This document shows positions 1,938 to 32,069 of a DNA stretch of 64,000 nucleotides, piece after piece. Each line of letters starts with the position of its first letter. Position 1 is the stretch's first letter. The stretch is from NCBI GenBank assembly GCA_964441155.1, contig CAYYKL010000001.1, forward strand, positions 24,393 to 88,392, in the 5' to 3' direction. The position numbers and the translations under genes were made by a program. The stretch comes from an uncultured Pseudomonadales bacterium (lineage in GTDB: Bacteria; Patescibacteriota; Microgenomatia; UBA1400; RBG-16-45-19). The notes beneath the pieces are model-generated. The model was not told the origin of the DNA and made no database searches. It worked only from the letters and a program-made list of their open reading frames with translations.

Positions 1938-3223
1938 GCACTTACTTCCTGTTTTCCAACTACACTTTGGGGGTTACACACAGGACACGATTCACTTAAG
2001 ACTTTTCCGCTTTGGAACGCCAACCAAGCTTTTTTCCAAGGGAGAATGCTTAAAAATACTTTGAGATCCAAAAGTCTGCGCAGCCACCAGCCAACTCGTC
2101 CATAAAATTTCAAGCCTGCCCACACGGCGGCTGCCCAATTAGAACCAACGGGAATCGAATAGACGGGTGTTTTAGCAATATAGGTGGGTCGAAACTTTTT
2201 CTCAAGCCTCGCGTCTATGTCAGTGGCAATAAAGGCCCCGTCATAGAGTGCTGTTTGTGCCATGCCGGTAAATTCAGTCGCCGCTGCGTCTCCACCAACG
2301 TAGATACGAGAATTATCGGCAGTTTGCAAATGCTTGTTTACTTCGATTTGACCTTTTGGATTCAGCTTTAATCCCTCAACTTGAGCGTACAGTTTATTTG
2401 ATGCAACACCCGCAGTCCAAATAACTGTTTTGGCATTCATTTGCATATCTTTCAAAAAGACTTCTGAAACTTCTTCTTTAATGAGACGCCGGTTAAGGTA
2501 GACATTTACACCCAGTGAGCGAATACGCGCCTCAATTCGGTTCGTCACATCGTCAGGCAGCATTGGCACCAAATGCGAAGGTGATTGAATGAGTTCAACC
2601 GTGACCAAGGTGGGATCAATGCCATGTTTTTGGGCGAGCGAATCTGCATAGATTGCCAATTCAGCCGCCACTTCGGTACCACTGGCTCCTCCGCCAACCA
2701 CCACCAAATGAGTATTGCACAATGCCTCATCTTTGTTCGCTGCCACACATGAGGCAAATGATTCATGGAGGTGGCGCTTGAGTTTGAGTGCCTCTTCAAT
2801 TGACTTAAATCCAAAGGATAACTCAGGCAAACCAGGTGTGTCGTAATAGGTTGTCTCACTGCCCAAGGTTAAAACCAAATAATCATAGGGGTAGATTGAG
2901 CCCATGTCTCCGGTAACATAACGCTCAGCAGTATCGACACTCATAATGGTGTCTTGAACTACTCGAACTTGCGTGCCCTTGAATATTTCTTCAAGAAGTA
3001 TGCACACCTCCAACGGTGAGCGCCCCGTGACAACTCGATAGAGTGCAGCATGGTATTCAAAATGAGGTTTATTGCTAATGAGGGTTATCTTGGTGTGATG
3101 CGGATCGAGTTTTGCGAGCTTGAGTGCACACGCCACTCCGGCAAATCCTGCGCCAACGATAACAATATTTTTTTCGGTTGTTTCCATAGCTACTTTAGAA
3201 TCGCTTTCCCATCGACTGCCCAA
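1934..3223 (-). CDS. type II NADH dehydrogenase / FAD-dependent pyridine nucleotide-disulfide oxidoreductase
   Basis: Two Rossmann GxGxxG motifs (IVIVGAGFAGV and LVVVGGGASGTE), NDH-2-like. The likely true start is METTEK at ~3187, which then abuts the stop of the upstream gene. Confidence 0.7.
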   Translation of the reverse strand: MGSRWESDSKVAMETTEKNIVIVGAGFAGVACALKLAKLDPHHTKITLISNKPHFEYHAALYRVVTGRSPLEVCILLEEIFKGTQVRVVQDTIMSVDTAERYVTGDMGSIYPYDYLVLTLGSETTYYDTPGLPELSFGFKSIEEALKLKRHLHESFASCVAANKDEALCNTHLVVVGGGASGTEVAAELAIYADSLAQKHGIDPTLVTVELIQSPSHLVPMLPDDVTNRIEARIRSLGVNVYLNRRLIKEEVSEVFLKDMQMNAKTVIWTAGVASNKLYAQVEGLKLNPKGQIEVNKHLQTADNSRIYVGGDAAATEFTGMAQTALYDGAFIATDIDARLEKKFRPTYIAKTPVYSIPVGSNWAAAVWAGLKFYGRVGWWLRRLLDLKVFLSILPWKKAWLAFQSGKVLSESCPVCNPQSVVGKQEVSA

Positions 3224-5313
3224 GCATGTGTACGAGTGACAATCACCGGGTTAATTTCTATTTCAGCAAATTCATCTACATTCTGAGCTAATTGCGAGAG
3301 AGCGATCATGAGCTCTTGCAGTTTTTGGACTGCATACGGCTCTTCACCGCGATAGCCTTCAAGCACTTTAGCGATTTTTGCTTGCCGCACCAAAGCCGCG
3401 ATTTGAGCTGAATCTTGCGTTAATACAAGCAAGTTTCGATCGGCAACCAGCTCTGCCAGGGTTCCCCCCGCGCCAAACATCATGATGTTGCCAAAACTCG
3501 GGTCACGCTTGATGCCGATTATGACCTCCACTCCCGATTCGACTTGTTTTTGAATCTGAACGTTCGCTTGAGAATCACCCAACTTTTGGATTGATGCTTG
3601 CATTTTGGTCCACGCTTCTTTCATTTGCTCGGGAGTATGAATGTTGGTCACAACCCCACCAATGTCCTGCTTGTGCAGGGCTTTGCTTGAGGTGATTTTG
3701 AGCACCACTGGCCAATTGTGTTGGGTGACAAACGCCAAAGCATCTTCTTCACTGGCCACAATTTCTTGAGGCGGCACTGCGATTCCTGCTTGGGACAAGA
3801 GTTCGTTGGCTTCGTGCCCAGTCAACACGACTCGGTCGTCATTTCGCACATTTTTAATCAAGTTAAGCGCAAATTCGATGTTTTCAACAATTGGTTCTCG
3901 AATTACCAGGGGTGAACCCTGTTTAGACCGCCATTGTTGCCACCACCACATTGAACCCAAAGCCTTGATTGCGCGCTCGGGATAACGAAACGATGGAATT
4001 TTAGCTTTATCTAAAATCTGCTCCCCAGCCACAATTACCCCGCCGCCCATAAATGAGCAAATAATCGGCTTATGATACTTTTGCGACATTTCCTTGATAA
4101 CCTCGGCTGTTTGCTCCACTTGCGTGGTTATTTGTGGGGTCAAAATCACGATTACTGAATCTACTGACTCTTCAGCCAAAACCGCATCCATGGCAATGCG
4201 GTAGCGATCAGCCAGAGCATCGCCCAAAACATCAACCGGGTTTAGGAGGCTGGCAGCTCGGGGCAACTGCTGCTGTAGCAAGCTCTTGGTTTCTTCACTA
4301 ATTTCCGCCAGCTCTAATCCGGCTTCTTGAATAAAGTCAGTGCTAATAACCGCTGGGCCGCCAGCGTTAGAAACAACCGCCACTTTGGGGCCACTCGGAG
4401 CTTGTTCCCAGGCAAAAACCCGAGACAAGTCAAATAAATCCTCAACCCCATGGCAACGGATTATTCCAGCCTGGGCAAAGGCTTGATCCAAAACCGCGTC
4501 CTCCCCTGCAATTGAACCTGTATGTGATTGCATCGCTTTTTGAGCCGCTTTGGATTTACCTGGTTTTAACACAAACAAGGGTTGGGTTTGGGCTAGTTTT
4601 GAAGCAAGCTTAAAAAATTCTTTGCCTTTCTCAAGCGATTCTAAATACATGCCGATGGGTTGATATGGCGACAATCCTGGTTCACTGCTGGGCTGAGTGT
4701 TGCTTTGCGACCAGTAGGCCAACAACTCATTTTCACCTAGCGTTGATTTGTTGCCTAAGGTAATAAATTCACTAAAACCAATACCGGCGTATTCCGCCCA
4801 ATCAAATACACTCGAAGCAATAGCTCCCGACTGCGACATAAATCGCAAGTTCCCCAAGCTACTCGAAACCTTACCGAATGAAGCGTTGATGTGGTGATGA
4901 TTGTTCACAAAACCCAAACAATTCGGGCCCAGGAGTGCCAAATCAAATTCTTTAGCCACGGCCAACAGCTCAAGCTCTAACTGCTCACCGTCTTTGCCAA
5001 TTTCTTTAAACCCCGCACTCAAAATTACCACACTTTTGGTGCCTTTTTTTCCTAATTCCCGCAGAGATTCGATCACAAATTGCGAGGGTATGGCAATAAC
5101 CGCCATGTCTGGAATTTCGGGGAGACTTGCAATATCGGCATAACTCTGGATGTCTCCGATTAATTCAGCTTTCGGATTGACCGGAAATAATTTGCCTTGG
5201 TAGCCTGAAGTCAAAAGGTTGGCGAGGACTATGGCACCGATTTTTTTAGGATCTCTGGAAGCGCCAATAATCGCAATAGAATTAGGGTAAAAAAGTGTCT
5301 GCAAAGTGGGCAT
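3190..5313 (-). CDS. ADP-forming acetyl-CoA synthetase (acetate--CoA ligase, NDP-forming), fused alpha+beta
   Basis: 707 aa. N-terminal CoA-binding domain (IAIIGASRDPKKIGAIV), a succinyl-CoA-synthetase-like flavodoxin domain and a C-terminal ATP-grasp domain. Confidence 0.75.
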   Translation of the reverse strand: MPTLQTLFYPNSIAIIGASRDPKKIGAIVLANLLTSGYQGKLFPVNPKAELIGDIQSYADIASLPEIPDMAVIAIPSQFVIESLRELGKKGTKSVVILSAGFKEIGKDGEQLELELLAVAKEFDLALLGPNCLGFVNNHHHINASFGKVSSSLGNLRFMSQSGAIASSVFDWAEYAGIGFSEFITLGNKSTLGENELLAYWSQSNTQPSSEPGLSPYQPIGMYLESLEKGKEFFKLASKLAQTQPLFVLKPGKSKAAQKAMQSHTGSIAGEDAVLDQAFAQAGIIRCHGVEDLFDLSRVFAWEQAPSGPKVAVVSNAGGPAVISTDFIQEAGLELAEISEETKSLLQQQLPRAASLLNPVDVLGDALADRYRIAMDAVLAEESVDSVIVILTPQITTQVEQTAEVIKEMSQKYHKPIICSFMGGGVIVAGEQILDKAKIPSFRYPERAIKALGSMWWWQQWRSKQGSPLVIREPIVENIEFALNLIKNVRNDDRVVLTGHEANELLSQAGIAVPPQEIVASEEDALAFVTQHNWPVVLKITSSKALHKQDIGGVVTNIHTPEQMKEAWTKMQASIQKLGDSQANVQIQKQVESGVEVIIGIKRDPSFGNIMMFGAGGTLAELVADRNLLVLTQDSAQIAALVRQAKIAKVLEGYRGEEPYAVQKLQELMIALSQLAQNVDEFAEIEINPVIVTRTHAWAVDGKAILK

Positions 5314-14695: not shown

Positions 14696-15844
14696 TTACC
14701 GCCTAGTTACCCGAGCAAACCACCCAGGATTTCGATACCGAGAGGCATTTAAATATAAGCCCACTCCTGCCATCATGGTGATTAATGTCGAGCCGCCATA
14801 GGACACAAACGGCAATGGTACACCCGTCAGGGGAACCAAAACAACCATGGCACTCAAATTAAGTAGCGTTTGAATCGTGATCCAGGTGACCACACTCAAG
14901 GATAAAAGCCGAGCAAATTGGTCTTGAATTCGGTTGGCCACACTAAACCCTCGGGTAATGAGCACGCCATACACGCCAATAACCACACTTGATCCCAAAA
15001 ACCCGAGCTCTTCAGCCACCACAGCAAAAATCGAGTCCGTTGTCGCTTCGGGTAAATATTGATATTTTTGCCTGGAGCGCCCGATGCCAGTGCCGTACCA
15101 ACCACCCGAACCCAAGCCTATAACCACTTGGCGAATATGGTACGACTTGCCTTGGGGATCAGTGGTGGGAGATAAAAAGGTGGTCAAACGGGCGCGACGA
15201 TACGGACTACCCAGGATTAACATGCTCCCCATAAAAAGCCCTAAGAGCATAATGGCTCCCAAATATTTGAGTTTTGCGCCCGACATAAAATACATAATCA
15301 GGGCAAATACCGCGAGCACGATAGCAGTACCCATATCTGGCTCGAGCAAGAGCAAGCCCATCATGAGACCCACCAAACCCAAAAATGGCTCGAACCGCTG
15401 ATGTTTGGTGAGCCAGGACGAGAAATAGACAGCTACCGCAAGCTTAGTAACTTCTGATGGCTGCAAGTTGAAAAACCCTAAAGGAATCCAGCGCCGCGCT
15501 CCCTGAACTTTGGAGCCAATTCCAGGGATTAACACTGCAACGAGCAGCACAATGGCACCGATAAACAGCGGTTTGGCCAGTTTTTTTACCAGTGTGAGTG
15601 GCGTCAACCAAGTGACACACATTACAGCAAGACTTAAGAGCACCCACAATGCATGACGCCGGGCAAAATGGAATTTATCTCCAAACTGGGCATAGGCTTC
15701 CACCACTGATGCATCAAAAACCATAAGCAAGCCAAAAGCCAATAATCCCAAAATGAGACTCAGAAAAATCCAATCCACTTTGGCTGGATACTTTCCTTTT
15801 TTAAGGGTCTTGGATGTTTTTAATTGTTGGCGTTGTCGTCTCAT
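14696..15844 (-). CDS. ftsW: SEDS peptidoglycan polymerase FtsW
   Basis: 382 aa polytopic SEDS protein between murD and murG. Confidence 0.85.
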   Translation of the reverse strand: MRRQRQQLKTSKTLKKGKYPAKVDWIFLSLILGLLAFGLLMVFDASVVEAYAQFGDKFHFARRHALWVLLSLAVMCVTWLTPLTLVKKLAKPLFIGAIVLLVAVLIPGIGSKVQGARRWIPLGFFNLQPSEVTKLAVAVYFSSWLTKHQRFEPFLGLVGLMMGLLLLEPDMGTAIVLAVFALIMYFMSGAKLKYLGAIMLLGLFMGSMLILGSPYRRARLTTFLSPTTDPQGKSYHIRQVVIGLGSGGWYGTGIGRSRQKYQYLPEATTDSIFAVVAEELGFLGSSVVIGVYGVLITRGFSVANRIQDQFARLLSLSVVTWITIQTLLNLSAMVVLVPLTGVPLPFVSYGGSTLITMMAGVGLYLNASRYRNPGWFARVTRR

Positions 15845-17187
15845 GGTGCGCTCATTTCTTTCACTAAGGTTTTGAATGCGTCCCCTCGCTGTGCATAATC
15901 GGCGAAGGCATTAAAGCTCGCTGCAGCGGGAGAAAGTAAAATCACTTCTCCAGGCTTAGTTGCGGAAAAAGCCTGCTGCACTGCTTCAGCTAAATTATTG
16001 ACCTTGATAGTGTTTTTTTGTGACATGTGCCCAAGTGACTCAAGTAATGCCCATCCTGTTTCGGGCATGCCAATAATAGTGTGGAAGTTAGAGTCAGCAA
16101 TATGGGGAACAAGCGTTTCAAAGGTTTGCCCCCGATTAAAGCCACCAACCAACAAGCAGCCTGATTTTTCGCCACAGGCAGTGATAGCCGCAATCGTCGC
16201 TTCTGGAATCGTAGCTAGCGAATCGTTAATACACTCTCTGCCCGCAAATATTCCGATCTGCTCAAATCGATGTGGCAAGCCTATAAAATCAGCCAGAGAT
16301 TCAAATAGTTGAGCTTCTGGTATGTTCTCACTTTGTGCAATCGACAAAAGCGCATGCACGGAGAGCTCGTTAATCCCAGGATGATTCGTGAGCCATGTTT
16401 TTGCTTCTGCTGAAAGGGCGCGAGTTTCGCCCCCAAAGAGCACTTTTGTGCCTGATCCCTCTCCCGAAAAATAACTCAAAACTCGGGCATCGTCGGCCAG
16501 ATAAGCAATGTCGTGAGCCTTTTGAAAGGCAACAATGTTCACTTTTGCACCAGCATAGACATCAAAAGAAGGATAATAATCAAAATGTTCTCGATATAGA
16601 TTCAGAATCACTGCCTGGTGCGGACTGACAACCACATCAAGCAATTGATGTGAGGACAGTTCATAGACGATTTTTGTGTCTGGAGTGATTTGCGCGATAG
16701 ATTCAAAAGCTGGTTTGCCAATATTTCCCAATAAAATCGTATCCGGATGAATCAGCTTAAGAGCTGTGTAGATTAAACTTGAGGTGGTACTCTTTCCTTT
16801 TGTGCCCGTGATGCCAATGGTTTGTGAGCCAAAAAGGGCCAAAAACTCATTGGTTTGGCTAGTCACTGTTTGTTGGTGAGTCAAGCGTGATTGAAAATCT
16901 GGGTTAAACGGCGATACTCCGGGTGAACGGAAAATGACGTCAAATGCACTCAGCTCATCAAGCCAGGATTCTCCCCAATACCCGCTGATTTCATATTTCT
17001 GCATTAATTCCTGAGTCTCTGGGGCAAGTGAATCGAGCGGTTTTTGGTCAGCAACAGCAATGCGTGCGCCAATCCCTTGCTCAAGCAATAGCTTTGCCGT
17101 CGACAAGCCTTCCCTGCCCATGCCCAGGACTAAGATTTGAGCATCACCGTACGTTGTTTTAAGATGATCAAGTAGAGGTGAGTTCAT
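15841..17187 (-). CDS. murD: UDP-N-acetylmuramoyl-L-alanine--glutamate ligase (MurD family)
   Basis: Mur ligase three-domain architecture with a P-loop (GITGTKGKSTT). The likely start is MNSPLL at ~17187, abutting the upstream gene. Confidence 0.85.
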   Translation of the reverse strand: MNSPLLDHLKTTYGDAQILVLGMGREGLSTAKLLLEQGIGARIAVADQKPLDSLAPETQELMQKYEISGYWGESWLDELSAFDVIFRSPGVSPFNPDFQSRLTHQQTVTSQTNEFLALFGSQTIGITGTKGKSTTSSLIYTALKLIHPDTILLGNIGKPAFESIAQITPDTKIVYELSSHQLLDVVVSPHQAVILNLYREHFDYYPSFDVYAGAKVNIVAFQKAHDIAYLADDARVLSYFSGEGSGTKVLFGGETRALSAEAKTWLTNHPGINELSVHALLSIAQSENIPEAQLFESLADFIGLPHRFEQIGIFAGRECINDSLATIPEATIAAITACGEKSGCLLVGGFNRGQTFETLVPHIADSNFHTIIGMPETGWALLESLGHMSQKNTIKVNNLAEAVQQAFSATKPGEVILLSPAAASFNAFADYAQRGDAFKTLVKEMSAP

Positions 17188-18536
17188 AGTTTGGTGATGA
17201 GATGTAATTGATTTAGTAGTGCTGGTGGCACGAGCGTGTCGTTGCCCCATGACTGCATAAAATCTTCTTGCCTGGCTTGACTATTCTGATCAGGTGGATA
17301 GTGTTTTTTTACATAAGCTAAGACTGGAGGCAAGCTTTCATTGTAGAGCTTGGAGCAAAGCTCAAATGCGAGTCGCGTCTCTTCTCGAGTACCCACACAT
17401 TCAAACGGTTTTGCTTGTGTCTCATTGAGACTCGCATCAATGAGCGGGATCAAATCTAGATTTCTAAACACATCGCCGCCAAAAAAATGGATGGTTCGGT
17501 CCAAGCCAATAAACGGCGCAAGTGCACTAAAGGTAAACAAACATTTGGGACAATTTTTGCACCATGAAGTTTTCGATCGGTTACAGCTTAAGAATGCATC
17601 AAAATATTCTGGGAATTGACTAAACACGCGCGCAATTTGCAATTCATACAGAGGCCGCAATAGTGAAAAGTAGGCAATGCTACCTGAAAGATGTTGCTTG
17701 ATGTAGGCAGCTACCTCTAATTCAAACGCAAATGACTTCGAGTATTGGTGGTTAATTTCCTGTTCTTTCCACAACACATTACCTTCATCACTGCTGCGCT
17801 CATTCCCGACAACCAGTTGATTAAAACCATGGAGGTGCGCCACCAGTGCGGACAGAAATGCCAAAAGTGCCGAAAATGGTGTGTGGCCGTTGAGATACCC
17901 TTTGGCATCAAGCTCAAGCAACTGAGAATCTATGGAGCGAGAAACCTTAATAGGATTAGTAAAACCTGCAATTCGGGAAACTTCGAGCGCAGCCGGGGTT
18001 GGATTAAGAAGCAACACTTGTGCGCTCTCCCCAGTTGCTTTAACCGTTTCGAGTGCGACAACTGAATCTTTGCCACCTCCGACTAGAATTAAGTTATCAG
18101 GTTTCAGGTTTTGGTTGTTGGCATCTGATTGTGGTGCGAATACTGTGTCACTATCGACCTGAAATTGCACTAAGTCGTCACGAGTGAAATCTATGTCATT
18201 TTGATAAAAATACTCTCCCATGCCCTGAATGAGCAAGTTTCGCCAAAAAACTAATTGTTCTGGGGTGAGCATGCCTGCTTTGATGATAATTTCGGGCGAG
18301 CACGTAGCTTTCCAATAGCTTAGTAGCTCCACCATGCCCAGTGTGAAAACGAACGCATCGATTGATTCCAGCGAGTAGTTTTCGGGCAAAGGAATGTGAA
18401 CCGTGGGACGAAACACAAGATTAGGCTCAATCGAAAATTGCCAGGTAATCAGCAATTCCCTCTCCCTAACCTCATGAGCAAAGGAGTCATACGAAAATAC
18501 GGGATGTTTTTGGCGCAAGTGTGAAAACGTATCCAT
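17184..18536 (-). CDS. PP-loop ATP-pyrophosphatase-like protein with a Cys cluster; candidate MurL-type UDP-MurNAc-L-Ala-L-Glu epimerase
   Basis: 450 aa. PP-loop motif LVGGGKDS in mid-protein and a downstream CKNCPKC cluster, giving a QueC-like adenylating core. It is translationally coupled immediately upstream of murD inside the division cluster. Confidence as a CDS is high; the functional call is an inference. Confidence 0.45.
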   Translation of the reverse strand: MDTFSHLRQKHPVFSYDSFAHEVRERELLITWQFSIEPNLVFRPTVHIPLPENYSLESIDAFVFTLGMVELLSYWKATCSPEIIIKAGMLTPEQLVFWRNLLIQGMGEYFYQNDIDFTRDDLVQFQVDSDTVFAPQSDANNQNLKPDNLILVGGGKDSVVALETVKATGESAQVLLLNPTPAALEVSRIAGFTNPIKVSRSIDSQLLELDAKGYLNGHTPFSALLAFLSALVAHLHGFNQLVVGNERSSDEGNVLWKEQEINHQYSKSFAFELEVAAYIKQHLSGSIAYFSLLRPLYELQIARVFSQFPEYFDAFLSCNRSKTSWCKNCPKCLFTFSALAPFIGLDRTIHFFGGDVFRNLDLIPLIDASLNETQAKPFECVGTREETRLAFELCSKLYNESLPPVLAYVKKHYPPDQNSQARQEDFMQSWGNDTLVPPALLNQLHLITKL

Positions 18537-18609: not shown

Positions 18610-19110
18610 TTAATTTCTTGAAAATTGTCCTGTCCCACCATATAAGTCGTCATCAGAGGAATGGCTTCCCGCGTCAGGATCAACTTGTGTTAAATTTCGT
18701 CTTTTTTGGAAGCCTTCTAACTGTCGCCTCGCTGATTCTATCTCCTCAGGAGAAAAGTCTTTGACAGCAATCTCAAACGCTTGTGTATAATATTGCTGAA
18801 ATTCTGCTTCGAGTTTTGGATCCATTTTTTTCCCAACAGCACTAGTTTGCTCACCTAAATACCCATTTCGCCATTGAAAAAGAGTGTCTCTTTGTAATGT
18901 CTTTTTTTGATCAAATGAGTTGGGGTCATCTGTCTCCGCTTTATTGAGCATTCTAATTTCATTATCTGCCCACGCCAATTGATCTGACGCATACAGGTCT
19001 CGCCAAGCTGTCTCACCCCATACACCATAATTTCGAGCACTTTGGATTCTGTCTGGAGGAATTATGCTTGAGTCTAAACCTGGGATATTCGCATCTACAG
19101 CATCAATCAT
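18610..19110 (-). CDS. hypothetical cytoplasmic protein
   Basis: 166 aa, no TM segment and no recognisable motif; located between mraY and the MurL-like gene. Confidence 0.6.
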   Translation of the reverse strand: MIDAVDANIPGLDSSIIPPDRIQSARNYGVWGETAWRDLYASDQLAWADNEIRMLNKAETDDPNSFDQKKTLQRDTLFQWRNGYLGEQTSAVGKKMDPKLEAEFQQYYTQAFEIAVKDFSPEEIESARRQLEGFQKRRNLTQVDPDAGSHSSDDDLYGGTGQFSRN

Positions 19111-21023: not shown

Positions 21024-21259
21024 GGTAAAAGTTTTCCCTTTCGTCCTGTGTTTATATTACTAAACCGGACTCATCAGTCCCGACATAATCGGGAGAGGGG
21101 CAAAGCGGTACGGGGTCAGAAAATCGATTGGAGCTGATAAATCAGCAAAAATGACAGGTGTCATTTTCCAAAAGATGTTCGTCTCCCATACAGCTTCGCG
21201 CCCTTTACAAAATGCTAGTTGAAACTAGCGTTGATCCTAAAGCGAACTAAAGTGTTGGC

Positions 21260-22273
21260 CTAACGATGACCGTGATGGCCGGCCGGCTCGTGGTGATCCT
21301 CGTCCTCGTGGTCCTCTTCGCCATGGCCGTGGTCGTCATCGGCGTCCAGTTCGACTTCCCACTGCTGGCCTTGCGCCTTGAAAACGATGTGCTCGACATC
21401 CGACGGAATCTTCAACTCAATGAAGACCGGGACGTCATCTTCCCAGGAGGCCAGCAGGTTGCCCTGGTCGTCTTCGATGACCGCCCCGCCTTGGAAGGCA
21501 TACATCTGCGCGTCGGCCAAATGGGCGACGATCCCGGCGAGATCCGGCAATTCGCTGAGCATGTTGTAGCAGAAGGCCGCGCTGGGCGCATCCTCATGCT
21601 CGGTGTCATGCAACAGCTCCTCCAACATATCCTCGCTGACCTGATCGCCCACACCGACAACGCTGACCACCAGCTTGGGCAGGTCGCCGCGCGCGATGGC
21701 GGCTTCCAGCTGCTCGACATACTCGCCAACTTCGTGGAGGTCATGCCACTGGCCATCCGTGACCACGCAGAGCAGGGCTTTATCGATGCGCTCGCCGTTG
21801 CCGATCCGGAGTTTGAGGTGCGTGATGAACTCGCGCAACGCGGGGAGGAAATAGGTGGCGCCGCCGAAGTCGCCGTTCGGACCGTCGAACCGGTGGGATA
21901 ACGCTTCCTCAGCGGTCATCTCATCGGGATCGACGACAGCGATCTTCGTACCACTTTCCCCCACCGCCCAGTAGGTGACCCAGACGGACTTCGTCGAGTC
22001 CATCTTGACCAGATAAGGCAGGATGACGCCCATCGCCTGATCGACTTGGTTAGCCGCCAGACCCAGGAGTCGGCTGATACCGCCCTTGCCGTACTCGTCC
22101 TGGAAGGACTTGCTCGCGTCGATAGCCATACCCACGGCGAGATTCTCGATGGTGTCGAACGGGAGGACCCCCTCGAGATGGTAGTAGCCGTCGGAGCCGA
22201 GGCCGCAGTGAACGTCAACGAACGGAAGTTGGGCTTGGTGCTTGTGGGCACCATGATTAACGTGACTAGACAT
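21260..22273 (-). CDS. von Willebrand factor type A (vWA) domain protein with a His/Asp/Glu-rich C-terminal tail
   Basis: MIDAS motif DASKS after a hydrophobic beta-strand (LAVGMAIDASKS) and a downstream VVTDG motif. The C-terminus is DADDDHGHGEEDHEDEDHHEPAGHHGHR. The gene is markedly GC-rich (~60%+) with a GC3-rich codon bias, unlike its flanks. Confidence 0.75.
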   Translation of the reverse strand: MSSHVNHGAHKHQAQLPFVDVHCGLGSDGYYHLEGVLPFDTIENLAVGMAIDASKSFQDEYGKGGISRLLGLAANQVDQAMGVILPYLVKMDSTKSVWVTYWAVGESGTKIAVVDPDEMTAEEALSHRFDGPNGDFGGATYFLPALREFITHLKLRIGNGERIDKALLCVVTDGQWHDLHEVGEYVEQLEAAIARGDLPKLVVSVVGVGDQVSEDMLEELLHDTEHEDAPSAAFCYNMLSELPDLAGIVAHLADAQMYAFQGGAVIEDDQGNLLASWEDDVPVFIELKIPSDVEHIVFKAQGQQWEVELDADDDHGHGEEDHEDEDHHEPAGHHGHR

Positions 22274-22693
22274 TTCGATTTACCTCTTTTTTTTGAATTT
22301 CGTATCTGTGTCGTCCCAAGCCATCCAAGTTGACCTTGAAGGTTTTTTTGCCTCAGTTAGCCAGAAGTCTCGCGACTTTCTGTTTCTTTCTCCTAAAAAG
22401 ATTTTCTCTAACTTCAGCTGATGGCTCGCTGGATAAAACTATTTTTACCCACTGAGCCACCGCCGAAGAAAGCAAAATCTTTCAATTGGAGTGCTTTAGA
22501 ATCAATTTGTAAAGGTGCAAAAATGCACTTTTAATCCCTCACACAAAACAAGCAATTTGCTTTAGGAGTGACTAAAAGCGCGAACTTAAAATGTTAGTGT
22601 TCAAATCAATGAACAAAGTATTATATGTTATAGGTTTATATATTTCAACAACTATATTTGTCATCTAATCTAGCGAGAATTCAGAATTTAAAA

Positions 22694-22729
22694 AACTATA
22701 GACTCTCCTTCTCTGAATGAGAAGGATCA
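22694..22729 (-). terminator. candidate intrinsic terminator after the 512-aa gene
   Basis: An 8-bp stem (UCCUUCUC / GAGAAGGA) with a 7-nt loop starts at the stop codon. A U6 run follows after a ~10-nt spacer, which is longer than ideal. Confidence 0.3.
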
Positions 22730-24265
22730 AGTCTCAAAATCATTAGTCCAATCATCAACCTTTGATGTTCGGGGTTGGATTGGTTCAAATTCTGCTGAAT
22801 AATCAGGCTCAGTTTTTTTCTTCTTAGGCTTCACTACCGGATCGGACTGCTTTGTTTTTGGTTTATGGGTTGCGGCCTCAAAATCCGCCGCCCAGTCAGA
22901 TGCGTCAGAAATTGTATTTGTAGGTTTAGAGCTAGTGGCAGCAAAGTCATTTCGCCAATCCTGTGCATCCACTTGAACTGGCGGCCTGACGAGTGGCGCG
23001 AAATCAGCAGAATAATCTGGTCTAACAGGTTCTGTGGGACGCTTTTTTGGTTTGGGTTTTGGTTGTCCACCCGGCCTTGATTCTGGTCTTGTGACAGGTG
23101 AAGGAGCAATAGGTCGAGGAGTTGGTGTTATTGGTTTTGGCAATTGTTGAGCAGGAACTATCACTTTTGGTTTCAACTGGTCAAATGAAACATCACTCAA
23201 TGTGCTAAATAATCGTTTATCATCGGGTGTAGAAATAACCAGCAAGACTTCACGTATCAATTGCACATAATCTTCGGGAGTTGCTTGCGGAGGGATTTGT
23301 ATTTGCTCTTGACTCCATGAAGGAAGAAGTTGACGCAGTTTATCAATGAATGATCCTGAAGCAGGAGTAGTAGATTTTTTAGTGGATCGTGTCGCCGTGT
23401 CATCTTTGATCACATATCCTTCAGCTTCAAGTTCCCTTTCTACGCGTTCGCGATTGGGCAGAGGAAGTATTGCACTAACAAATGGGTGTGTGATTCCCTG
23501 ATCCAACATATCTTTTTGTAAAAATGCGAGTAAATCATGCGTGACGCGCATCATGATGTGATTATTTCCCATTTGTTCGATAGTGCCTGCATCAATGATC
23601 GGATACACCAATCCTATACCCTGACGTTTTTCCACTGCCTGGAGTGGACGGGTGGCGACTATCAATTGGTTAATCTGGGCATGATTTTCTCCAAAGGTAG
23701 AAATAGGAAACTGACTCGATGCATATGCATGGAGTAAATCAAGTCGTCCGACAGTCAATTCACCTTGGTGTAAGACTTTTTTTATTTCCAATTTACCAAG
23801 CACTATTTTTGCCCGAGCACTGACGCGCGCTCGCAAGGTGATCGGATCATTGAAGCCCTGATGATCAGTTTGTTGACTGATATTGGAAATAGAATAAAAA
23901 TCCATTTCTGCAGCTTCGATGTAGCGGAATTTGTCGCGCTTACTAACCCGCGCCTGCTGATAACTTCCTTGAAGAGAGGGATGTAAATCTCCGACTGGCA
24001 CGACATCGATCACATCATCGACGCAGCCTACCACTGCCAACGTATGCACGGTATCCGAATTTGGATCTTTCAAATGAAATACATCCAACAATACTTGCTG
24101 GACTCGAGCTAGTTCGCTTGAAACCGGAGTTTCATTACCTGAAGCTCGGAAAAAATCCGGCCATTGATTTGGTATTGGTGTGCGTGCTTCTCTTGTCATA
24201 TATTTTTTATTACCTTTTTTTGCGCTCAAGACATAAACGCAAAAAGAGGCAAACAAGAACATCAT
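22727..24265 (-). CDS. hypothetical protein: ~330-aa globular N-domain, a Pro/Lys-rich linker, and a C-terminal tail with 5 repeated acidic-aromatic motifs
   Basis: Low-GC ORF between the two high-GC genes. The tail motifs are PDYSADFAP, DWRNDFAAT, DWAADFEAAT, PDYSAEFEP and DDWTNDFET, the last at the extreme C-terminus. The N-domain has a Cys...His pair (VVGCVDD ... NNHIMM) that could indicate a papain/NlpC-like fold; this is speculative. The start is ambiguous: ATGATG at 24265 is embedded in a hairpin, and MTREAR at ~24199 is the alternative. Confidence 0.7.
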   Translation of the reverse strand: MMFLFASFCVYVLSAKKGNKKYMTREARTPIPNQWPDFFRASGNETPVSSELARVQQVLLDVFHLKDPNSDTVHTLAVVGCVDDVIDVVPVGDLHPSLQGSYQQARVSKRDKFRYIEAAEMDFYSISNISQQTDHQGFNDPITLRARVSARAKIVLGKLEIKKVLHQGELTVGRLDLLHAYASSQFPISTFGENHAQINQLIVATRPLQAVEKRQGIGLVYPIIDAGTIEQMGNNHIMMRVTHDLLAFLQKDMLDQGITHPFVSAILPLPNRERVERELEAEGYVIKDDTATRSTKKSTTPASGSFIDKLRQLLPSWSQEQIQIPPQATPEDYVQLIREVLLVISTPDDKRLFSTLSDVSFDQLKPKVIVPAQQLPKPITPTPRPIAPSPVTRPESRPGGQPKPKPKKRPTEPVRPDYSADFAPLVRPPVQVDAQDWRNDFAATSSKPTNTISDASDWAADFEAATHKPKTKQSDPVVKPKKKKTEPDYSAEFEPIQPRTSKVDDWTNDFET

Positions 24266-24306
24266 TTTTTTACAGCGCCCGAACTGCGCAAAAATGATGT
24301 TCTTGT
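24254..24306. repeat. ~16-bp (near-)perfect inverted repeat with a GC-rich 20-nt loop
   Basis: CAAGAACATCATTTTT ... AAAAATGATGT(T)CTTG flanks the loop ACAGCGCCCGAACTGCGC. On the minus strand it is followed by a U-rich stretch. It sits exactly at the junction between the PspA-like gene stop and the 512-aa gene start. Confidence 0.5.
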
Positions 24307-24321
24307 CGAACCTACAGAAAA

Positions 24322-25248
24322 CTAATTCTGGCTCTTCTCACCCTCCTTGAGCTGCTTGACAACCATCGCCGGATCTTGCTGCAGACCGCGCTCGGCCAGG
24401 AGCTCTTCGATTCGGCCGGTCCGCGCCGCGGGGGTCAAGAGAAGCAGTTCGCGCTGAACAGCTGCGCTGCTGGGCACACGTTGGAACGTGTCCCGTGCCG
24501 CATTCGCAGCTGCGACCGCACGATTTGCCTGGGATTCCAGGTCCCGCAACTCGCGCGTTGCTGAGTTATCCGTACCGACCCCGCTAGACGCGTGGTAAAA
24601 GTCTTTTGCAGCCTGGCCAGCAGTCGACTTCCCCGCAGCAACTTGCGCTTTCCGAATGGTTTCGGCCTTGAGAGTCTGGACGAGTTCCTTCAGTCTGCTC
24701 GCTTCATCAATCATCCTGAGTGCGGCCTCATAGTCGGGCTGCATATCCTGCAAGGATGATTCGAAACCTTGAATCTTAGCATCGGCTTGTAAAGCCGCGC
24801 TTTCGTTCATCCCGATTTCTTGATTTTGCCGAGCGTCGTCGATGCCATCGCCCATCAATTGCTTGAGGTTGTTCAACGCCAGTTCACGAATTTCAAGTTG
24901 TTCTTCACGTTGCCGCTGAAGCAGCATGTACGCATCGACCACTTGTGCATTGTGAACCTGCGCTTGCTCTAGCTGCCGCAGACGCTGTTGCGCCTCCGCC
25001 TCAGCTTTGGTTTCGATCGTCTGAGCTCGTAGTTGCGCATTATAGACGCTGTCAGCCGTTTTATCGGCTTTGGCGCCAAACGCGTTCATGAGTTTCCGAA
25101 GGGCATTCCGTCCCATCGGAGTCGCTACCAACACAAGCCCAACAAGCAGAATACCAATCAAACCAATCACAGTCGGATCCATCTTTACTATTCTCCTTAA
25201 GTTGTTTAGAGCATTACCTCGGACGTGGTCTGCTCGCTCGACGCACAA
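24322..25248 (-). CDS. membrane-anchored coiled-coil protein, PspA/IM30 (ESCRT-III-like)-resembling
   Basis: The likely start is MDPTVIGLIGILLVGLVLVA (TM helix, ~25182). It is followed by ~260 aa of heptad-rich, Ala/Gln/Glu/Arg-rich helix (LRKLMNAFGAKADK..., QRLRQLEQAQ...). GC is elevated (~55-60%) relative to flanks. The family assignment is tentative. Confidence 0.55.
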   Translation of the reverse strand: MCVERADHVRGNALNNLRRIVKMDPTVIGLIGILLVGLVLVATPMGRNALRKLMNAFGAKADKTADSVYNAQLRAQTIETKAEAEAQQRLRQLEQAQVHNAQVVDAYMLLQRQREEQLEIRELALNNLKQLMGDGIDDARQNQEIGMNESAALQADAKIQGFESSLQDMQPDYEAALRMIDEASRLKELVQTLKAETIRKAQVAAGKSTAGQAAKDFYHASSGVGTDNSATRELRDLESQANRAVAAANAARDTFQRVPSSAAVQRELLLLTPAARTGRIEELLAERGLQQDPAMVVKQLKEGEKSQN

Positions 25249-25506
25249 AATTTATGCGACCAGCGAGCAAACCACTTTCGTTAATTTTTCTGTAGGTGTT
25301 AATGTGCAAAAAATAACCACAAAAAATCCGCAGCTTAGGCGAATTTGTAATTATCTTCTTCAAATCAATCGTTACGATTAATTAAGACCGGAATTATAGC
25401 CTTGGGACTAAAATATGTCAAAGTTATAGGGTATAAATAACCAAATCGAAATTGCTACGCAGAAGCTATAAACACAATCACTTCTCGTTTTCAGAGCCTG
25501 TGGCGT

Positions 25507-31737: not shown

Positions 31738-32030
31738 AGATGCACCTCATTTTTTTCTAATTAAAGAATATGTTGTGAAAATTAAACTTTATGCAAGCTG
31801 GAGAATTGCTTGCTTCAAGATCCAAGCTGACTTTGTTTTCTGTAATTACTCACAGGATTTGATCAGGTTGGTTAGTGGATGCTTGACTCACCCAGAAGGT
31901 TTCCGCTGATACTTACTGAAGGCAGCCGTCTAGGCGCCGAAAGTAGTCCGATTTCTTGAAGCTGACTTCAAGACCTTCTTCCTCGTATCCCTAAATCGTC
32001 AAATGACGATGCAGGACCACACGCTCTTTT
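31738..32030 (-). ncRNA. structured 5' leader upstream of glmS; weak candidate glmS-ribozyme-like element
   Basis: A 332-nt gap between murA and glmS. The minus-strand RNA carries, in order: AGAGCG..., a P1-like hairpin (UCGUCAUUUGACGA), GAUACGAGGAAGAAGGU, a 7-bp hairpin (CUUGAAG-UCAG-CUUCAAG), AAUCGG...UUUCGGCGCC, and ACGGCUG...CAGCGG. These resemble glmS-ribozyme core blocks (GACGAGGA, AUCGAAUUUUCGGCGG, CGGCUG), but the P2 topology and the 5' GCGCC are not matched. Low confidence. Confidence 0.2.
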
Positions 32031-32069
32031 TTTGGTTATCCCTCCATAAACCTCCTTTCAAAATACACC

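Follow-up and report, generated by a model that had tools for sequence, protein, structure and literature searches.

A conserved module of two genes, one encoding a divergent vWA protein and the other a partner protein encoded directly upstream of it, lies in the 64-kb window of DNA that constitutes the whole stretch analyzed here. A preliminary description had joined these genes to a third, encoding a PspA-like coiled-coil protein, in a three-gene module. That grouping is not supported: the coiled-coil gene lacks homologues, is missing from beside the pair in relatives whose upstream sequence is available, and carries a promoter and a terminator of its own. The explanation that we favor, with moderate confidence, is that the pair has a cytoplasmic transition-metal role, that the coiled-coil gene is separate from it, and that the GC-richness of the vWA gene is old and maintained.

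Organization of the locus

The three ORFs lie at 21260-22273, approximately 22727-24265, and 24322-25248, all on the minus strand, and are flanked by MurC/MurB/MurA/GlmS on one side and by MraY/MurL/MurD/FtsW/MurG/FtsA on the other. These coordinates and neighbors agree with the earlier placement of three same-strand genes inside a division/cell-wall cluster. Nine contigs from eight runs match the window at 99.98-100% identity and are gap-free over all junctions. Since they reproduce every junction, the stretch is not chimeric, and the possibility of an assembly artefact, for which the preliminary description had proposed a check of junction continuity, is ruled out. A search of the region for an integrase, a transposase, a tRNA, or flanking direct repeats found none. 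The gene content of the window, which includes pyruvate:ferredoxin oxidoreductase, ADP-forming acetyl-CoA synthetase, DUF4012, and many orphan ORFs, could be that of a small fermentative organism.

Two of the gene starts likely differ from those of the longest ORFs. The strong hairpin between the coiled-coil and partner genes has perfect 17-nt arms (24253-24269 and 24290-24306) and covers the ATG that opens the 512-aa partner ORF. Because this ATG, at 24265, falls within the 3' arm, and because homologues begin at the equivalent of M23, the partner protein likely starts at the ATG at 24199 (490 aa). The mechanical ORF of the coiled-coil gene reaches a TTG at 25248 (308 aa), and its start is likely the ATG at 25182 (286 aa), which has an AGGAG sequence 9 nt upstream. 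The strong hairpin probably serves the coiled-coil gene as an intrinsic terminator. Both this hairpin and the terminator-like one after the partner gene had been noted in the preliminary description, and both are present when structures are computed. The leader of the vWA gene shares the blocks TTGCACCTTTACAA, CCATCAGC, and TCTTTYTC-AGGAG-AAAGA with two other low-GC lineages, across which a short leader hairpin varies by paired changes. No Rfam family matches this leader.

Table 1. Features of the locus, in window coordinates.
Feature	Position	Strand	Evidence
Weak terminator-like hairpin 3' of vWA gene	21214-21229	-	z = -1.0, like shuffles
vWA protein, 337 aa	21260-22273	-	GC 0.609, GC3 0.784; model and family evidence
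His/Asp/Glu-rich C-terminal tail, residues 309-337, putative metal-binding	21263-21349	-	pLDDT <50
MIDAS loop 3, T172-D173-G174	21752-21760	-	Conserved in family
MIDAS loop 1, D52-A-S54-K-S56	22106-22120	-	Conserved in family
AT-rich leader of vWA gene, ~340 nt	22274-22612	-	Conserved blocks
Near-consensus promoter of vWA gene, TTGAAA-17-TATAAT	22620-22648	-	Similar one in L031
Terminator-like hairpin over partner stop codon, then U run	22700-22734	-	-18.3 kcal/mol, z = -2.1
Partner protein, 490 aa (512 aa from ATG 24265)	22727-24199	-	GC3 0.33; homologues upstream of vWA family
Tail region with five D-[WY]-x-x-[DE]-F motifs	22736-23017	-	Motif reading of ORF
Five tail motifs	23000-23017, 22943-22960, 22880-22897, 22787-22804, 22736-22753	-	
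Strong hairpin and U-rich tract	24240-24306	-	-33.6 kcal/mol, z = -6.1, 0/200 shuffles as stable
Membrane-anchored orphan, 286 aa, one N-terminal TM helix, then Ala/Leu/Gln/Glu-rich region	24322-25182	-	GC 0.557
Terminator-like hairpin in ~200-nt coiled-coil leader	25324-25346	-	-14.4 kcal/mol, z = -3.67
Sigma-70-type promoter of coiled-coil gene, TTGACA-17-TATAAT	25393-25421	-	12/12 hexamer matches

The vWA protein

Fold and family-level evidence, without a direct HMM match, show the product of 21260-22273 to be a genuine, very divergent TerF/copine-type vWA protein with a complete MIDAS. Its AlphaFold2 model (pTM 0.68) has N-terminal beta strands at residues 11-36, a vWA alpha/beta domain at 45-252, a C-terminal beta-sandwich at 258-308, and a disordered tail at 309-337. 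The DASKS sequence occupies residues 52-56, and T140 and T172-D173-G174 are also present. A profile search with the protein recovered 280 relatives; in the 120 family members examined, each of the MIDAS residues D52, S54, S56, T140, and D173 is kept by 93-112 (D52 in 105, S54 in 108, S56 in 100, and D173 in 112, with the adjoining G174 in 117). A Pfam scan of 120 relatives matched vWA-TerF-like in 24, Copine in 10, VWA in 8, and VWA_2 in 2. The window protein itself gives no match in Pfam or NCBIfam. Thus, of the earlier claim of a bona fide vWA domain with a MIDAS, the fold and the conserved site stand, and the direct HMM match that had been proposed as a check was not obtained. The His/Asp/Glu-rich C-terminal tail was described correctly; the protein also has a His-rich N-terminus, and its closest relatives carry similar tails. 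Only approximately 5-10 of the 120 family members have His-rich termini.

The partner protein and its tail motifs

The partner protein belongs to a family without annotation and consists of an N-terminal domain of approximately 330 aa followed by a Pro/Lys-rich disordered tail. All five acidic-aromatic motifs that had been reported on this tail were located, at residues 417, 436, 457, 488, and 505 of the 512-aa ORF, and the last stops two residues short of the C-terminus. Across the family W-x-x-D-F is nearly invariant. Thirteen tails are complete at the C-terminus, and in all of these except that of L031 (NTKDFE) a copy lies at or near the extreme end. The usual C-terminal form is PDWMKDF plus one residue; the L016 tail has EWMRDF and then seven residues.

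In 14 lineages (the window, L013, L015, L016, L017, L020, L021, L022, L023, L031, L036, L040, L042, and L046), the gene immediately upstream of the vWA gene encodes a partner homologue. The identities of the two proteins drop roughly in parallel, at 54, 39, and 38% for vWA and 40, 31, and 27% for the partner. This adjacency and the conserved tail motif support a functional tie between the partner and the vWA protein, and they make the proposed interaction between the MIDAS and the tail a reasonable one.

Metal-pump neighbors in relatives

In nine lineages (L016, L018, L020, L021/L034, L022, L023, L036-38, L039, and L042) there are two vWA copies, followed by an E1-E2 ATPase with an HMA domain, which is a divalent-metal P1B ATPase. 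All six ATPases examined in full (L016, L018, and L020-L023) have SPC, DKTGT, and HEGST sequences and long His-rich N-termini, and both of the two that were scanned, from L021 and L020, score above the cut-off for TIGR01525 and TIGR01512. The determinants of the P1B-4 class are SPC plus HEGGT(X)5N (PMC10800456). In L013 the gene immediately upstream encodes a MerR/SoxR/CueR-like regulator. Since a P1B ATPase with a poly-His N-terminus follows the pair in nine lineages, we infer that the pair is a cytoplasmic metal-homeostasis accessory module. There is no P1B ATPase in the 64-kb window, and none adjoins the other single-vWA relatives that have enough flanking sequence. Because the pump is not adjacent in the window clade, the case for a metal role there is made by homology, by the His-rich tails, and by a single MerR neighbor.

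Inspection of the N-termini revealed no signal peptide on either the vWA or the partner protein. Given this, together with the cytoplasm-facing metal pumps that are the linked neighbors in relatives, the adhesion role suggested earlier is not supported. No kinase, phosphatase, or nuclease neighbors were found in any locus examined, and the earlier statement that neither a kinase, a phosphatase, nor a MoxR ATPase accompanies the genes holds.

The coiled-coil gene

The coiled-coil protein has one hydrophobic segment, at residues 27-45 of the 308-aa ORF (Kyte-Doolittle 2.6), and the region after it is rich in Ala, Leu, Gln, and Glu with few prolines, a composition consistent with helix. Searches of Pfam, NCBIfam, PADLOC, PHROG, and PDB sequences gave no match, and its sole match among 5.8 billion protein clusters is itself. 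In particular, PspA_IM30 was not detected at E <= 0.1, nor was any PDB sequence at E <= 10. The missing Pfam, NCBIfam, and PDB sequence signal and the true TM helix leave the PspA/IM30 likeness unsupported; the N-terminal TM segment of the earlier account is confirmed, and the region that it described as coiled coil is compatible with helix. In all relatives whose upstream sequence is available, the gene is missing from beside the pair. It is a lineage-specific orphan, linked to the pair by adjacency and a milder compositional bias only.

Composition of the genes

Window GC is 0.449, and the 45 other window genes have a mean GC3 of 0.435 (sd 0.052). Relative to these genes, the vWA gene has z scores of 6.8 for GC3 and 8.6 for GC, and the coiled-coil gene (GC 0.55-0.56, GC3 0.59) has z scores of 3.1 and 5.8. 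The partner gene between them has a GC of 0.44 and the low GC3 given in Table 1. These values bear out the earlier observation that two GC- and GC3-elevated genes bracket a low-GC gene, and no further compositional outliers occur among the genes of the window. The RSCU of the coiled-coil gene correlates with that of the vWA gene at r = 0.54 vs 0.09 with background, so the partly common codon bias could reflect a real link between the two.

In three low-GC lineages the vWA gene has a GC3 of 0.78, 0.92, and 0.89, against 0.33, 0.25, and 0.22 for the respective partner genes; thus, three of four low-GC relatives keep a vWA GC3 of 0.78-0.92. In the fourth and closest relative, L053 (62-64% identity), it is an ordinary 0.37, indicating that GC-rich coding is not obligatory. 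In a neighbor-joining tree, (((window, L053), L015), L031), the four low-GC-host genes form one clade with no high-GC-host member within it, and the AT-rich leader is conserved across the low-GC lineages. Synonymous sites are saturated between these lineages: at identical residues, the same codon is used as often as would be expected if codons were drawn independently. Such saturation is not what a single recent transfer would leave, and the simple acquisition from a high-GC donor put forward earlier is not sustained. GC-rich vWA coding appears instead to be an old, maintained trait of the low-GC clade, with GC3 presumably kept up by selection or a biased process.

Alternative explanations

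It is also conceivable, though we consider it rather unlikely, that the vWA coding sequence, and here also the coiled-coil one, was replaced recently and independently in each lineage from different high-GC donors, with the partner and leader native. In codon usage, the GC-rich vWA genes resemble Myxococcota genes, including a homologue (r = 0.8-0.9), and most named genome loci of the family belong to high-GC phyla. In L015 and L031 the GC-rich stretch extends approximately 150 nt beyond the stop codon, as a transferred segment would, and the L031 tract contains a GC-rich hairpin. The normal GC3 of L053 and the presence of a second GC-elevated orphan gene 2 kb away point the same way. However, such replacement would require at least three independent events, each placing a coding sequence behind the same conserved leader, in a region free of the mobility signatures sought above. 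It is also at odds with the single low-GC-host clade and with the roughly parallel divergence of partner and vWA. Neither a word-seeded search of 5.8 billion clusters nor a profile search of 1.84 billion representatives found a closer high-GC homologue, or any homologue closer than 52-64%.

The preliminary description had envisaged a membrane-associated stress or adhesion complex of the vWA, acidic-repeat, and PspA-like ESCRT-III proteins, co-acquired from a high-GC donor, perhaps the actinobacterial host of an epibiont. The genes are indeed adjacent and on one strand, both flanking genes are GC-elevated with a partly common codon bias, the vWA domain and acidic motifs are real, and the gene content would suit a small fermentative organism. 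Nevertheless, we find this model improbable. No PspA_IM30 or PDB match was obtained, inspection of the N-termini showed no signal peptide on the vWA or the partner protein, and the coiled-coil gene lacks homologues, is nowhere else seen beside the pair, and is set apart by its own promoter and a strong terminator. The low GC of the middle gene shows that the three did not arrive together in a compositionally uniform block. Of the 16 named genome loci, none is actinobacterial (the 12 metagenome loci come without taxonomic labels), which tells against an actinobacterial host as the source.

Highly improbable, in our estimation, is a TerY-like signaling or anti-phage conflict module in which the vWA protein is a sensor or adaptor in defense and the metal-pump link is incidental. 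TerY-like vWA proteins are found in the context of defense, and a role as metal-sensing switches has been put forward for TerY-P triads (PMC11090510). Family members match the TerF-type vWA model, and single members of the 120 relatives are fused to TIR and to STAND-type or AAA ATPase domains. Unlike the kinase/phosphatase vWA systems of the TerY-P triads, however, the window pair has no kinase or phosphatase neighbor, nor were nucleases found at the loci examined. PADLOC gives no match for any of the three proteins, no relatives occur in viral contigs, and gene order with the P1B ATPase is kept in nine lineages.

Proposed role of the pair

Under the favored explanation of a two-gene module with a metal role, the partner would be a cytoplasmic scaffold whose disordered tail presents several copies of a [DE]-W/Y-x-x-[DE]-F motif, including one at the extreme C-terminus. 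A tail motif would contribute its conserved Asp to complete the MIDAS-bound cation of the vWA domain, and the Trp and Phe on either side would dock alongside, so that each scaffold molecule might recruit one to several vWA molecules. The module most probably acts in the buffering, sensing, or hand-off of Zn/Co/Cd/Ni-type metals in the cytoplasm. In the window clade, the linkage to the pump would have been lost, and the vWA protein itself would bear the His-rich segments.

Gene layout and composition of the region

The three genes occupy the minus strand from 25248 to 21260, within a block of approximately 10 kb of non-division genes. This block is flanked on one side by MurC, MurB and MurA, the glmS ribozyme and GlmS, and on the other side by diacylglycerol kinase, MraY, MurL, MurD, FtsW, MurG and FtsA. 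The cell-wall cluster includes a MurL epimerase and MurD2-type ligase pair (Pfam MurL_N and MurL_epimerase_C) and, between MraY and MurL, a 166-aa ORF of unknown function. Elsewhere, the window encodes pyruvate:ferredoxin oxidoreductase, ADP-forming acetyl-CoA synthetase and a DUF4012 protein, and many of its ORFs have no family match; this gene content is suggestive of a fermenter whose lineage has been little sampled.

As the preliminary description had noticed, the vWA and coiled-coil genes are elevated in GC. When compared with 45 other genes of the window, whose GC3 is 0.435 ± 0.052, they deviate with z = 8.6 and 5.8, respectively, for total GC and with z = 6.8 and 3.1 for GC3, and the window's own codon preferences would lead one to expect a GC3 of approximately 0.44 for both proteins. 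That description had also allowed for the high-GC segments being chimeric. Across every junction, the window is reproduced without gaps and at 99.98-100% identity by nine contigs, the products of independent assemblies of eight sequencing runs, and thus the GC steps are not assembly chimeras.

The coiled-coil gene most likely begins at ATG 25182, with AGGAG nine bases upstream. It is preceded by a perfect TTGACA-17-TATAAT promoter and followed on its 3' side by a hairpin with perfect 17-nt arms (-33.6 kcal/mol, z = -6.1) and a U-rich tract. Since the first ATG of the 512-aa partner ORF falls within this hairpin, and since partner homologues start at the position equivalent to Met23, the partner gene probably starts at 24199 and encodes 490 aa. 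A second hairpin with a U run overlaps the partner gene's stop codon, and the vWA gene has its own near-consensus promoter and a leader of approximately 340 nt.

Coordinates and base composition of features in the window and in loci of relatives (L-numbers) that carry members of the vWA family
Feature	Sequence	Coordinates	Strand	GC	GC3
Entire stretch	window			0.449	
vWA gene (337 aa)	window	21260-22273	-	0.609	0.784
vWA gene	L011	12850-13917			
Partner gene (probable start)	window	22727-24199	-	0.44	0.33
Coiled-coil gene (286 aa, most likely start)	window	24322-25182	-	0.55-0.56	0.59
Promoter of coiled-coil gene	window	25421-25393	-		
Leader of coiled-coil gene	window	25183-25392	-		
Terminator-like hairpin in that leader	window	25324-25346			
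Promoter of vWA gene	window	22648-22620	-		
vWA leader	window	22274-22612	-		
vWA leader	L015	1449-1688			
vWA leader	L031	1040-1274			
Candidate type III hammerhead ribozyme	window	21033-21102	-		
glmS ribozyme	window	31813-32036	-		
MurL epimerase	window	17184-18536	-		
MurD2-type ligase	window	15841-17250	-		
166-aa ORF	window	18610-19110			
Fermentation and DUF4012 genes	window	225-5313, 46625-48751			
P1B ATPase beside pair	L016	9245-12325			
P1B ATPase beside pair	L018	2949-5807			
P1B ATPase beside pair	L021	11020-13647			
P1B ATPase beside pair	L022	10869-14168			
P1B ATPase beside pair	L023	10979-14005			
Locus of closest relative of vWA gene (JGI Ga0604629_0472987)	L053	1-1372			
tRNA gene downstream of that relative	L053	1178-1250			

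A divergent vWA domain

The vWA protein has no match in Pfam or NCBIfam at E ≤ 0.1, all vWA models included, no significant match in PADLOC and none among PDB sequences in a phmmer search; PHROGs yields for it no more than a marginal hit (E = 0.0017) on a family without known function. Indeed, Pfam, NCBIfam, PADLOC and PHROG returned nothing usable for any of the three proteins. The preliminary description had itself named a failure of HMMs to detect the domain as grounds for refutation, but for the vWA protein this silence is overturned by its predicted structure and by its relatives. An AlphaFold2 model built on four homologues (pTM 0.68) predicts an alpha/beta Rossmann-like vWA fold, together with short N-terminal beta strands, a C-terminal beta-sandwich (residues 258-308) and a disordered His/Asp/Glu tail. 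Searching 1.84 billion representative proteins with a profile identified 280 relatives, and when 120 of these were scanned singly against Pfam, they matched vWA-TerF-like (24/120; best E = 1.8e-7), Copine (10/120), VWA (8/120) and VWA_2 (2/120). The MIDAS positions D52, S54, S56, T140 and D173 are kept in 93-112 of the 120 members. On the strength of the model and of this family-level sequence evidence, the 337-aa protein is a real, very divergent vWA domain. The earlier description of it as a bona fide vWA domain therefore stands with respect to fold, MIDAS site and family, but the window protein itself is recognized by no curated vWA HMM, and its link to the Pfam vWA families is transitive, by way of its relatives.

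Among the matches listed, a metagenome scan returned distant relatives only. A search of viral contigs found no relatives, so we dropped a phage origin, and the PADLOC and viral-contig searches argue against a role in defence.

The vWA gene is also misannotated: one public assembly called antisense ORFs of 95 and 211 aa in its place, and the exact 337-aa protein is recorded only from Logan assemblies and not in the NCBI genome that holds its neighbours. Genes rich in GC3 can be expected to carry long shadow ORFs, and the antisense frame is broken into these two pieces; a functional antisense ORF is therefore rejected as an artefact.

Comparison of the vWA protein with known systems

The vWA protein belongs structurally to the MIDAS-bearing vWA superfamily and works like its members, and its nearest branch is TerF/TerY/copine. 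With proteins of the TerF-C/TerY type (PF10138), which is the top Pfam family for its relatives, it shares a cytoplasmic vWA domain and a complete DxSxS...T...D MIDAS. TerF has a TerD domain at its N-terminus, joined to the vWA domain, whereas the window protein has no TerD match and possesses instead approximately 40 aa of beta strands and a His-rich stretch. The window protein further differs from TerF and TerY by its C-terminal beta-sandwich and by a dedicated partner whose tail bears motifs. In eukaryotes, vWA domains of the copine type are intracellular and serve protein-protein contacts, and in copines they are preceded by two N-terminal C2 domains. The likeness to this type (RGLG1/2, BONZAI1, copines; PF07002) lies in the Copine matches among family members; in contrast, the window protein is bacterial, has no C2 match and no RING, is only 337 aa long and is single-domain save for the beta-sandwich, with an identity too low for HMM detection.

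BatA-E/MoxR-vWA systems combine an AAA+ MoxR ATPase with membrane-anchored vWA proteins, whereas no AAA+ gene is present in the window neighbourhood and inspection of the vWA sequence reveals no TM segment. In the TerY-P triad, which like the window module has a proposed connection to metal stress, the vWA gene by definition stands together with genes for a PP2C phosphatase and a Ser/Thr kinase (PMC11090510). The window pair lacks both of these partners, and kinase and phosphatase domains are found neither among the window neighbours nor in related loci. The preliminary description was thus correct in matching the genes to neither TerY-P nor BatA-E, given that kinase, phosphatase and MoxR partner are all absent near the pair. 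The novelty of this vWA module lies in its partner family and its genomic association, to which a conserved GC3 island confined to a single gene is added.

The vWA protein and its partner form a conserved pair

A word-seeded search with the partner protein reached three clusters only. Translated searches of the vWA-family loci revealed a partner homologue directly upstream of the vWA gene in the window and in 13 more lineages (L013, L015, L016, L017, L020, L021, L022, L023, L031, L036, L040, L042 and L046); pair loci that bear organism titles come from Myxococcota, Melainabacteria and one MAG labelled Gammaproteobacteria. None of the 14 members of the partner family matches Pfam, and the family has no match among PDB sequences. 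[DE]-W-x-x-D-F occurs two to five times in each partner protein, within a Pro/Lys/Ser-rich segment, and in almost every full-length partner one W-x-x-D-F copy lies at or near the extreme C-terminus, typically as P-D-W-M-K-D-F plus one residue. The exceptions are L016, in which seven further residues follow the motif, and L031, in which the tail ends in NTKDFE. The window has a W-x-x-D-F-tailed partner in this same position, directly upstream of its vWA gene. The five acidic motifs previously noticed in the middle protein are thus, judging from conservation of the tail motif across the family, real and not a chance pattern. We consider the existence of a vWA protein with a conserved partner highly probable; literature searches found nothing on such a pair.

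The coiled-coil gene is a neighbour of the pair

The coiled-coil protein begins with one clear TM helix (Kyte-Doolittle 2.6), followed by approximately 260 aa that are rich in Ala, Leu, Gln and Glu and contain few prolines. The size of this region is similar to that of PspA/IM30/Vipp1 proteins, and membrane association is plausible for the coiled-coil protein. PspA-family proteins carry an amphipathic helix at the N-terminus, whereas this protein has a true N-terminal transmembrane helix and no homologues. In Pfam and NCBIfam it does not match PspA_IM30 (PF04012) at E ≤ 0.1, no PDB chain of a solved PspA or Vipp1 matches it at E ≤ 10, and among 5.8 billion protein clusters it matches itself only. 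These sequence searches lend no support to its earlier designation as PspA-like.

The three genes had also been proposed to form one module. Where relatives have sequence upstream of the pair, no comparable gene lies beside it, and the coiled-coil gene has its own promoter and its own strong terminator-like hairpin. It is tied to the pair by no more than its neighbouring position and some overlap in codon bias (RSCU r = 0.54 against the vWA gene, 0.09 against the background). We dropped an exact 11-mer and a 14/16 match as cis-elements common to the coiled-coil and vWA leaders, since the chained alignment of the two leaders scores 57.8, inside the range of 18-66 for other intergenic regions, of which four score 52.6-66 and two exceed 57.8. 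Given the lack of homologues and of conserved flanking, its own signals and a leader likeness that does not rise above the intergenic range, we treat the coiled-coil gene as a lineage-specific neighbour and the module as comprising two genes. Its own leader, approximately 200 nt behind the perfect consensus promoter, contains a terminator-like hairpin (z = -3.7) that could act as an attenuator.

Association of the pair with metal pumps in relatives

In nine lineages, the genes for partner, vWA and vWA are followed, in this order, by one for a large protein that combines E1-E2_ATPase, HMA and hydrolase domains. The six ATPases analysed in full all possess SPC (in a TM helix), DKTGT and HEGST(X)5N, and their N-terminal extensions are rich in His-Gly, His-Asp or H-V-H-G-P-x-C repeats, with HVHGPDCKH units and HGHGD runs as examples of these arrays. 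Two scanned ATPases exceed the NCBIfam cut-offs for TIGR01525 and TIGR01512 (heavy-metal and Cd-family P-type ATPases). SPC and HEGGT(X)5N are determinants of P1B-4 pumps, which mainly export Co2+, Zn2+ or Cd2+ and typically lack a cytoplasmic N-terminal domain (PMC10800456). The pumps of the relatives resemble P1B-4/P1B-2 pumps (CzcP, CtpD/CtpJ, PfeT, ZntA) in carrying SPC and HEGST(X)5N, but differ from P1B-4 in having an HMA domain and poly-His extensions of roughly 50-300 aa. The combination of SPC/HEGST, an HMA domain and a very long His-rich N-terminus is an unusual architecture for P1B-4-type pumps. Literature searches found no vWA or scaffold accessory proteins described for P1B-4/P1B-2 pumps. 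A MerR/SoxR/CueR-like regulator whose C-terminus is rich in Cys is encoded immediately upstream of the pair in one locus (L013).

The nine relatives have both tandem vWA paralogues and an SPC/HEGST P1B ATPase, whereas the 64 kb of the window encode a single vWA protein and lack a P1B ATPase. The vWA protein of the window and its nearest relatives have His-rich N- and C-termini, a sub-clade trait found in 5-10 of the 120 members. For the window organism, we regard a metal role of the pair as a tentative proposal, falling somewhat short of an even chance.

Leader RNA and ribozymes

The vWA leaders of the window, L015 and L031 share blocks of nucleotide identity, although their proteins are only 39-54% identical. 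A short hairpin in the leader varies by paired substitutions (GTC-GCGA-GAC, GACC-GCGA-GGTC and GTCA-CAA-TGAC), and RNAalifold, applied to just these three leader sequences, found some compensatory pairs with a covariation term of +0.33, which is not favourable. No Rfam family was detected in the leaders, in the window or in related loci, at either gathering or E-value thresholds, and a riboswitch of an Rfam family was rejected there. The leader may be a new cis-regulatory RNA. The sequence TTGCACCTTTACAA, considered as a window-wide operator, was rejected because its matches occur at chance level only.

Between the vWA stop codon and the start of the downstream 120-aa ORF (ATG 21023) lies a candidate type III hammerhead ribozyme, a full-length match to RF00008 (model 1-54) with a CUGAUGA and GAAA core and a CUC cleavage triplet. 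At 25.9 bits it stays below the gathering score of 48.5, with E = 0.024 when 4.6 kb were searched, and its minimum-energy fold is the three-way junction. The glmS ribozyme upstream of GlmS (RF00234) scores 53.2 bits, above the gathering score.

Origin of the GC-rich vWA gene

The preliminary description took the GC skew to suggest acquisition from a high-GC donor and considered an actinobacterial host a plausible source if the organism were an epibiont. The same contrast between a GC-rich vWA gene and its partner recurs in relatives: vWA and partner GC3 are 0.78 and 0.33 in the window, 0.92 and 0.25 in L015, L008 and L009 (three assemblies; 52-54% amino acid identity to the window vWA protein), and 0.89 and 0.22 in L031-33 (three sources; 39% identity). 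At identical residues, the observed fractions of identical codons (0.54, 0.54 and 0.59, and 0.38 against L053) equal those expected from independent draws (0.54, 0.50 and 0.58, and 0.35), and thus synonymous sites between the orthologues are fully turned over. Divergence of the partner genes roughly parallels that of the vWA genes, and the AT-rich leader, promoter included, keeps its blocks of identity across the three lineages. In a neighbour-joining tree, the genes from low-GC hosts form one clade, (((window, L053), L015), L031), whose sister consists of genes from hosts of 55-61% GC. The nearest homologues of the vWA protein belong to low-GC hosts, with identities of 52-64%, and no closer homologue from a high-GC host was found among 5.8 billion clusters or 1.84 billion representatives. 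The host-derived idea is likewise unsupported, since Actinobacteria are not represented among the 16 loci that carry organism names. Of the hallmarks of a genomic island, the region displays compositional deviation but not mobility genes, a tRNA target, repeats or a near-identical donor: there is no integrase or transposase among the Pfam-scanned window neighbours, no tRNA or rRNA gene in the window and no flanking direct repeat at the region.

A single old transfer is disfavoured because amelioration would be expected by now, and recent independent transfers would require three precise replacements from unsampled donors. Maintenance of GC-rich coding, through selection or some biased process, is the more parsimonious account, but several observations speak against it. 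The closest relative, L053 (62-64% identity over 206 aa), has an ordinary vWA GC3 of 0.37 in a contig of 42% GC, and therefore one branch of the clade either lost the GC-rich state or did not acquire it at all. Moreover, the GC-rich tract overshoots the vWA stop codon by approximately 150 nt in L015 and L031, the codon usage of the GC-rich vWA genes resembles that of a generic high-GC genome, and relatives from Melainabacteria, with genomes of 48% GC, show no contrast. That gene-specific selection or a gene-specific biased process has kept the clade's vWA gene GC-rich through complete synonymous turnover, in genomes of 36-45% GC, is a proposition that we consider less likely than not. One possibility is that the gene's codons can still be read, or its mRNA remains intact, at times when metal stress impairs tRNA modification that depends on Fe-S or metals, or induces AU-directed RNA decay; the sensor might then be the long AT-rich leader, which is conserved.

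Proposed mechanism and role

From the observed synteny and motif conservation, together with the fold and MIDAS site, we infer the following mechanism and role. Acidic residues complete MIDAS coordination in integrin I-domains and in the Rea1 MIDAS. By analogy with these, we propose a contact between the MIDAS, which is complete in the window protein, and the partner's tail: the Asp of W-x-x-D-F would complete the coordination sphere, the aromatic residues of the motif would supply affinity, and a tail with several motifs would gather one or several vWA molecules. The putative ligand is a repeated linear motif in a disordered tail and not a folded domain, which differs from integrins and from Rea1/Midasin with the UBL domains of Rsa4/Ytm1, and the window system also lacks the AAA+ partner of Rea1/Midasin.

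Both proteins of the pair look cytoplasmic, because no signal peptide or TM segment is visible from their probable starts. The poly-His domains of the linked pumps also face the cytoplasm, and we therefore favour the view that the pair helps to buffer or sense divalent metals in the cytoplasm or to deliver them to exporters. Within the clade of the window, the pump linkage may have been lost, after which the vWA protein would have gained its own His-rich segments. We place the overall picture, a conserved pair with a metal accessory role, at about even odds.

The pair defines a new conserved unit, which in many bacteria belongs to a four-gene cluster with a poly-His P1B ATPase, and it offers a testable idea, namely that of a bacterial MIDAS domain that reads a repeated linear motif. 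It also poses a practical annotation problem, in that gene callers misread the GC-rich vWA gene, and the standard inference from atypical GC to recent transfer would mislabel this gene, whose GC3 is approximately 0.8-0.9 in AT-rich genomes. If the stress-linked maintenance suggested above is true, the vWA gene would offer an exceptionally clear example from nature of one bacterial gene whose coding has been tuned to stress, and it would be attached to an accessory vWA/scaffold system of metal pumps that has not been described before.
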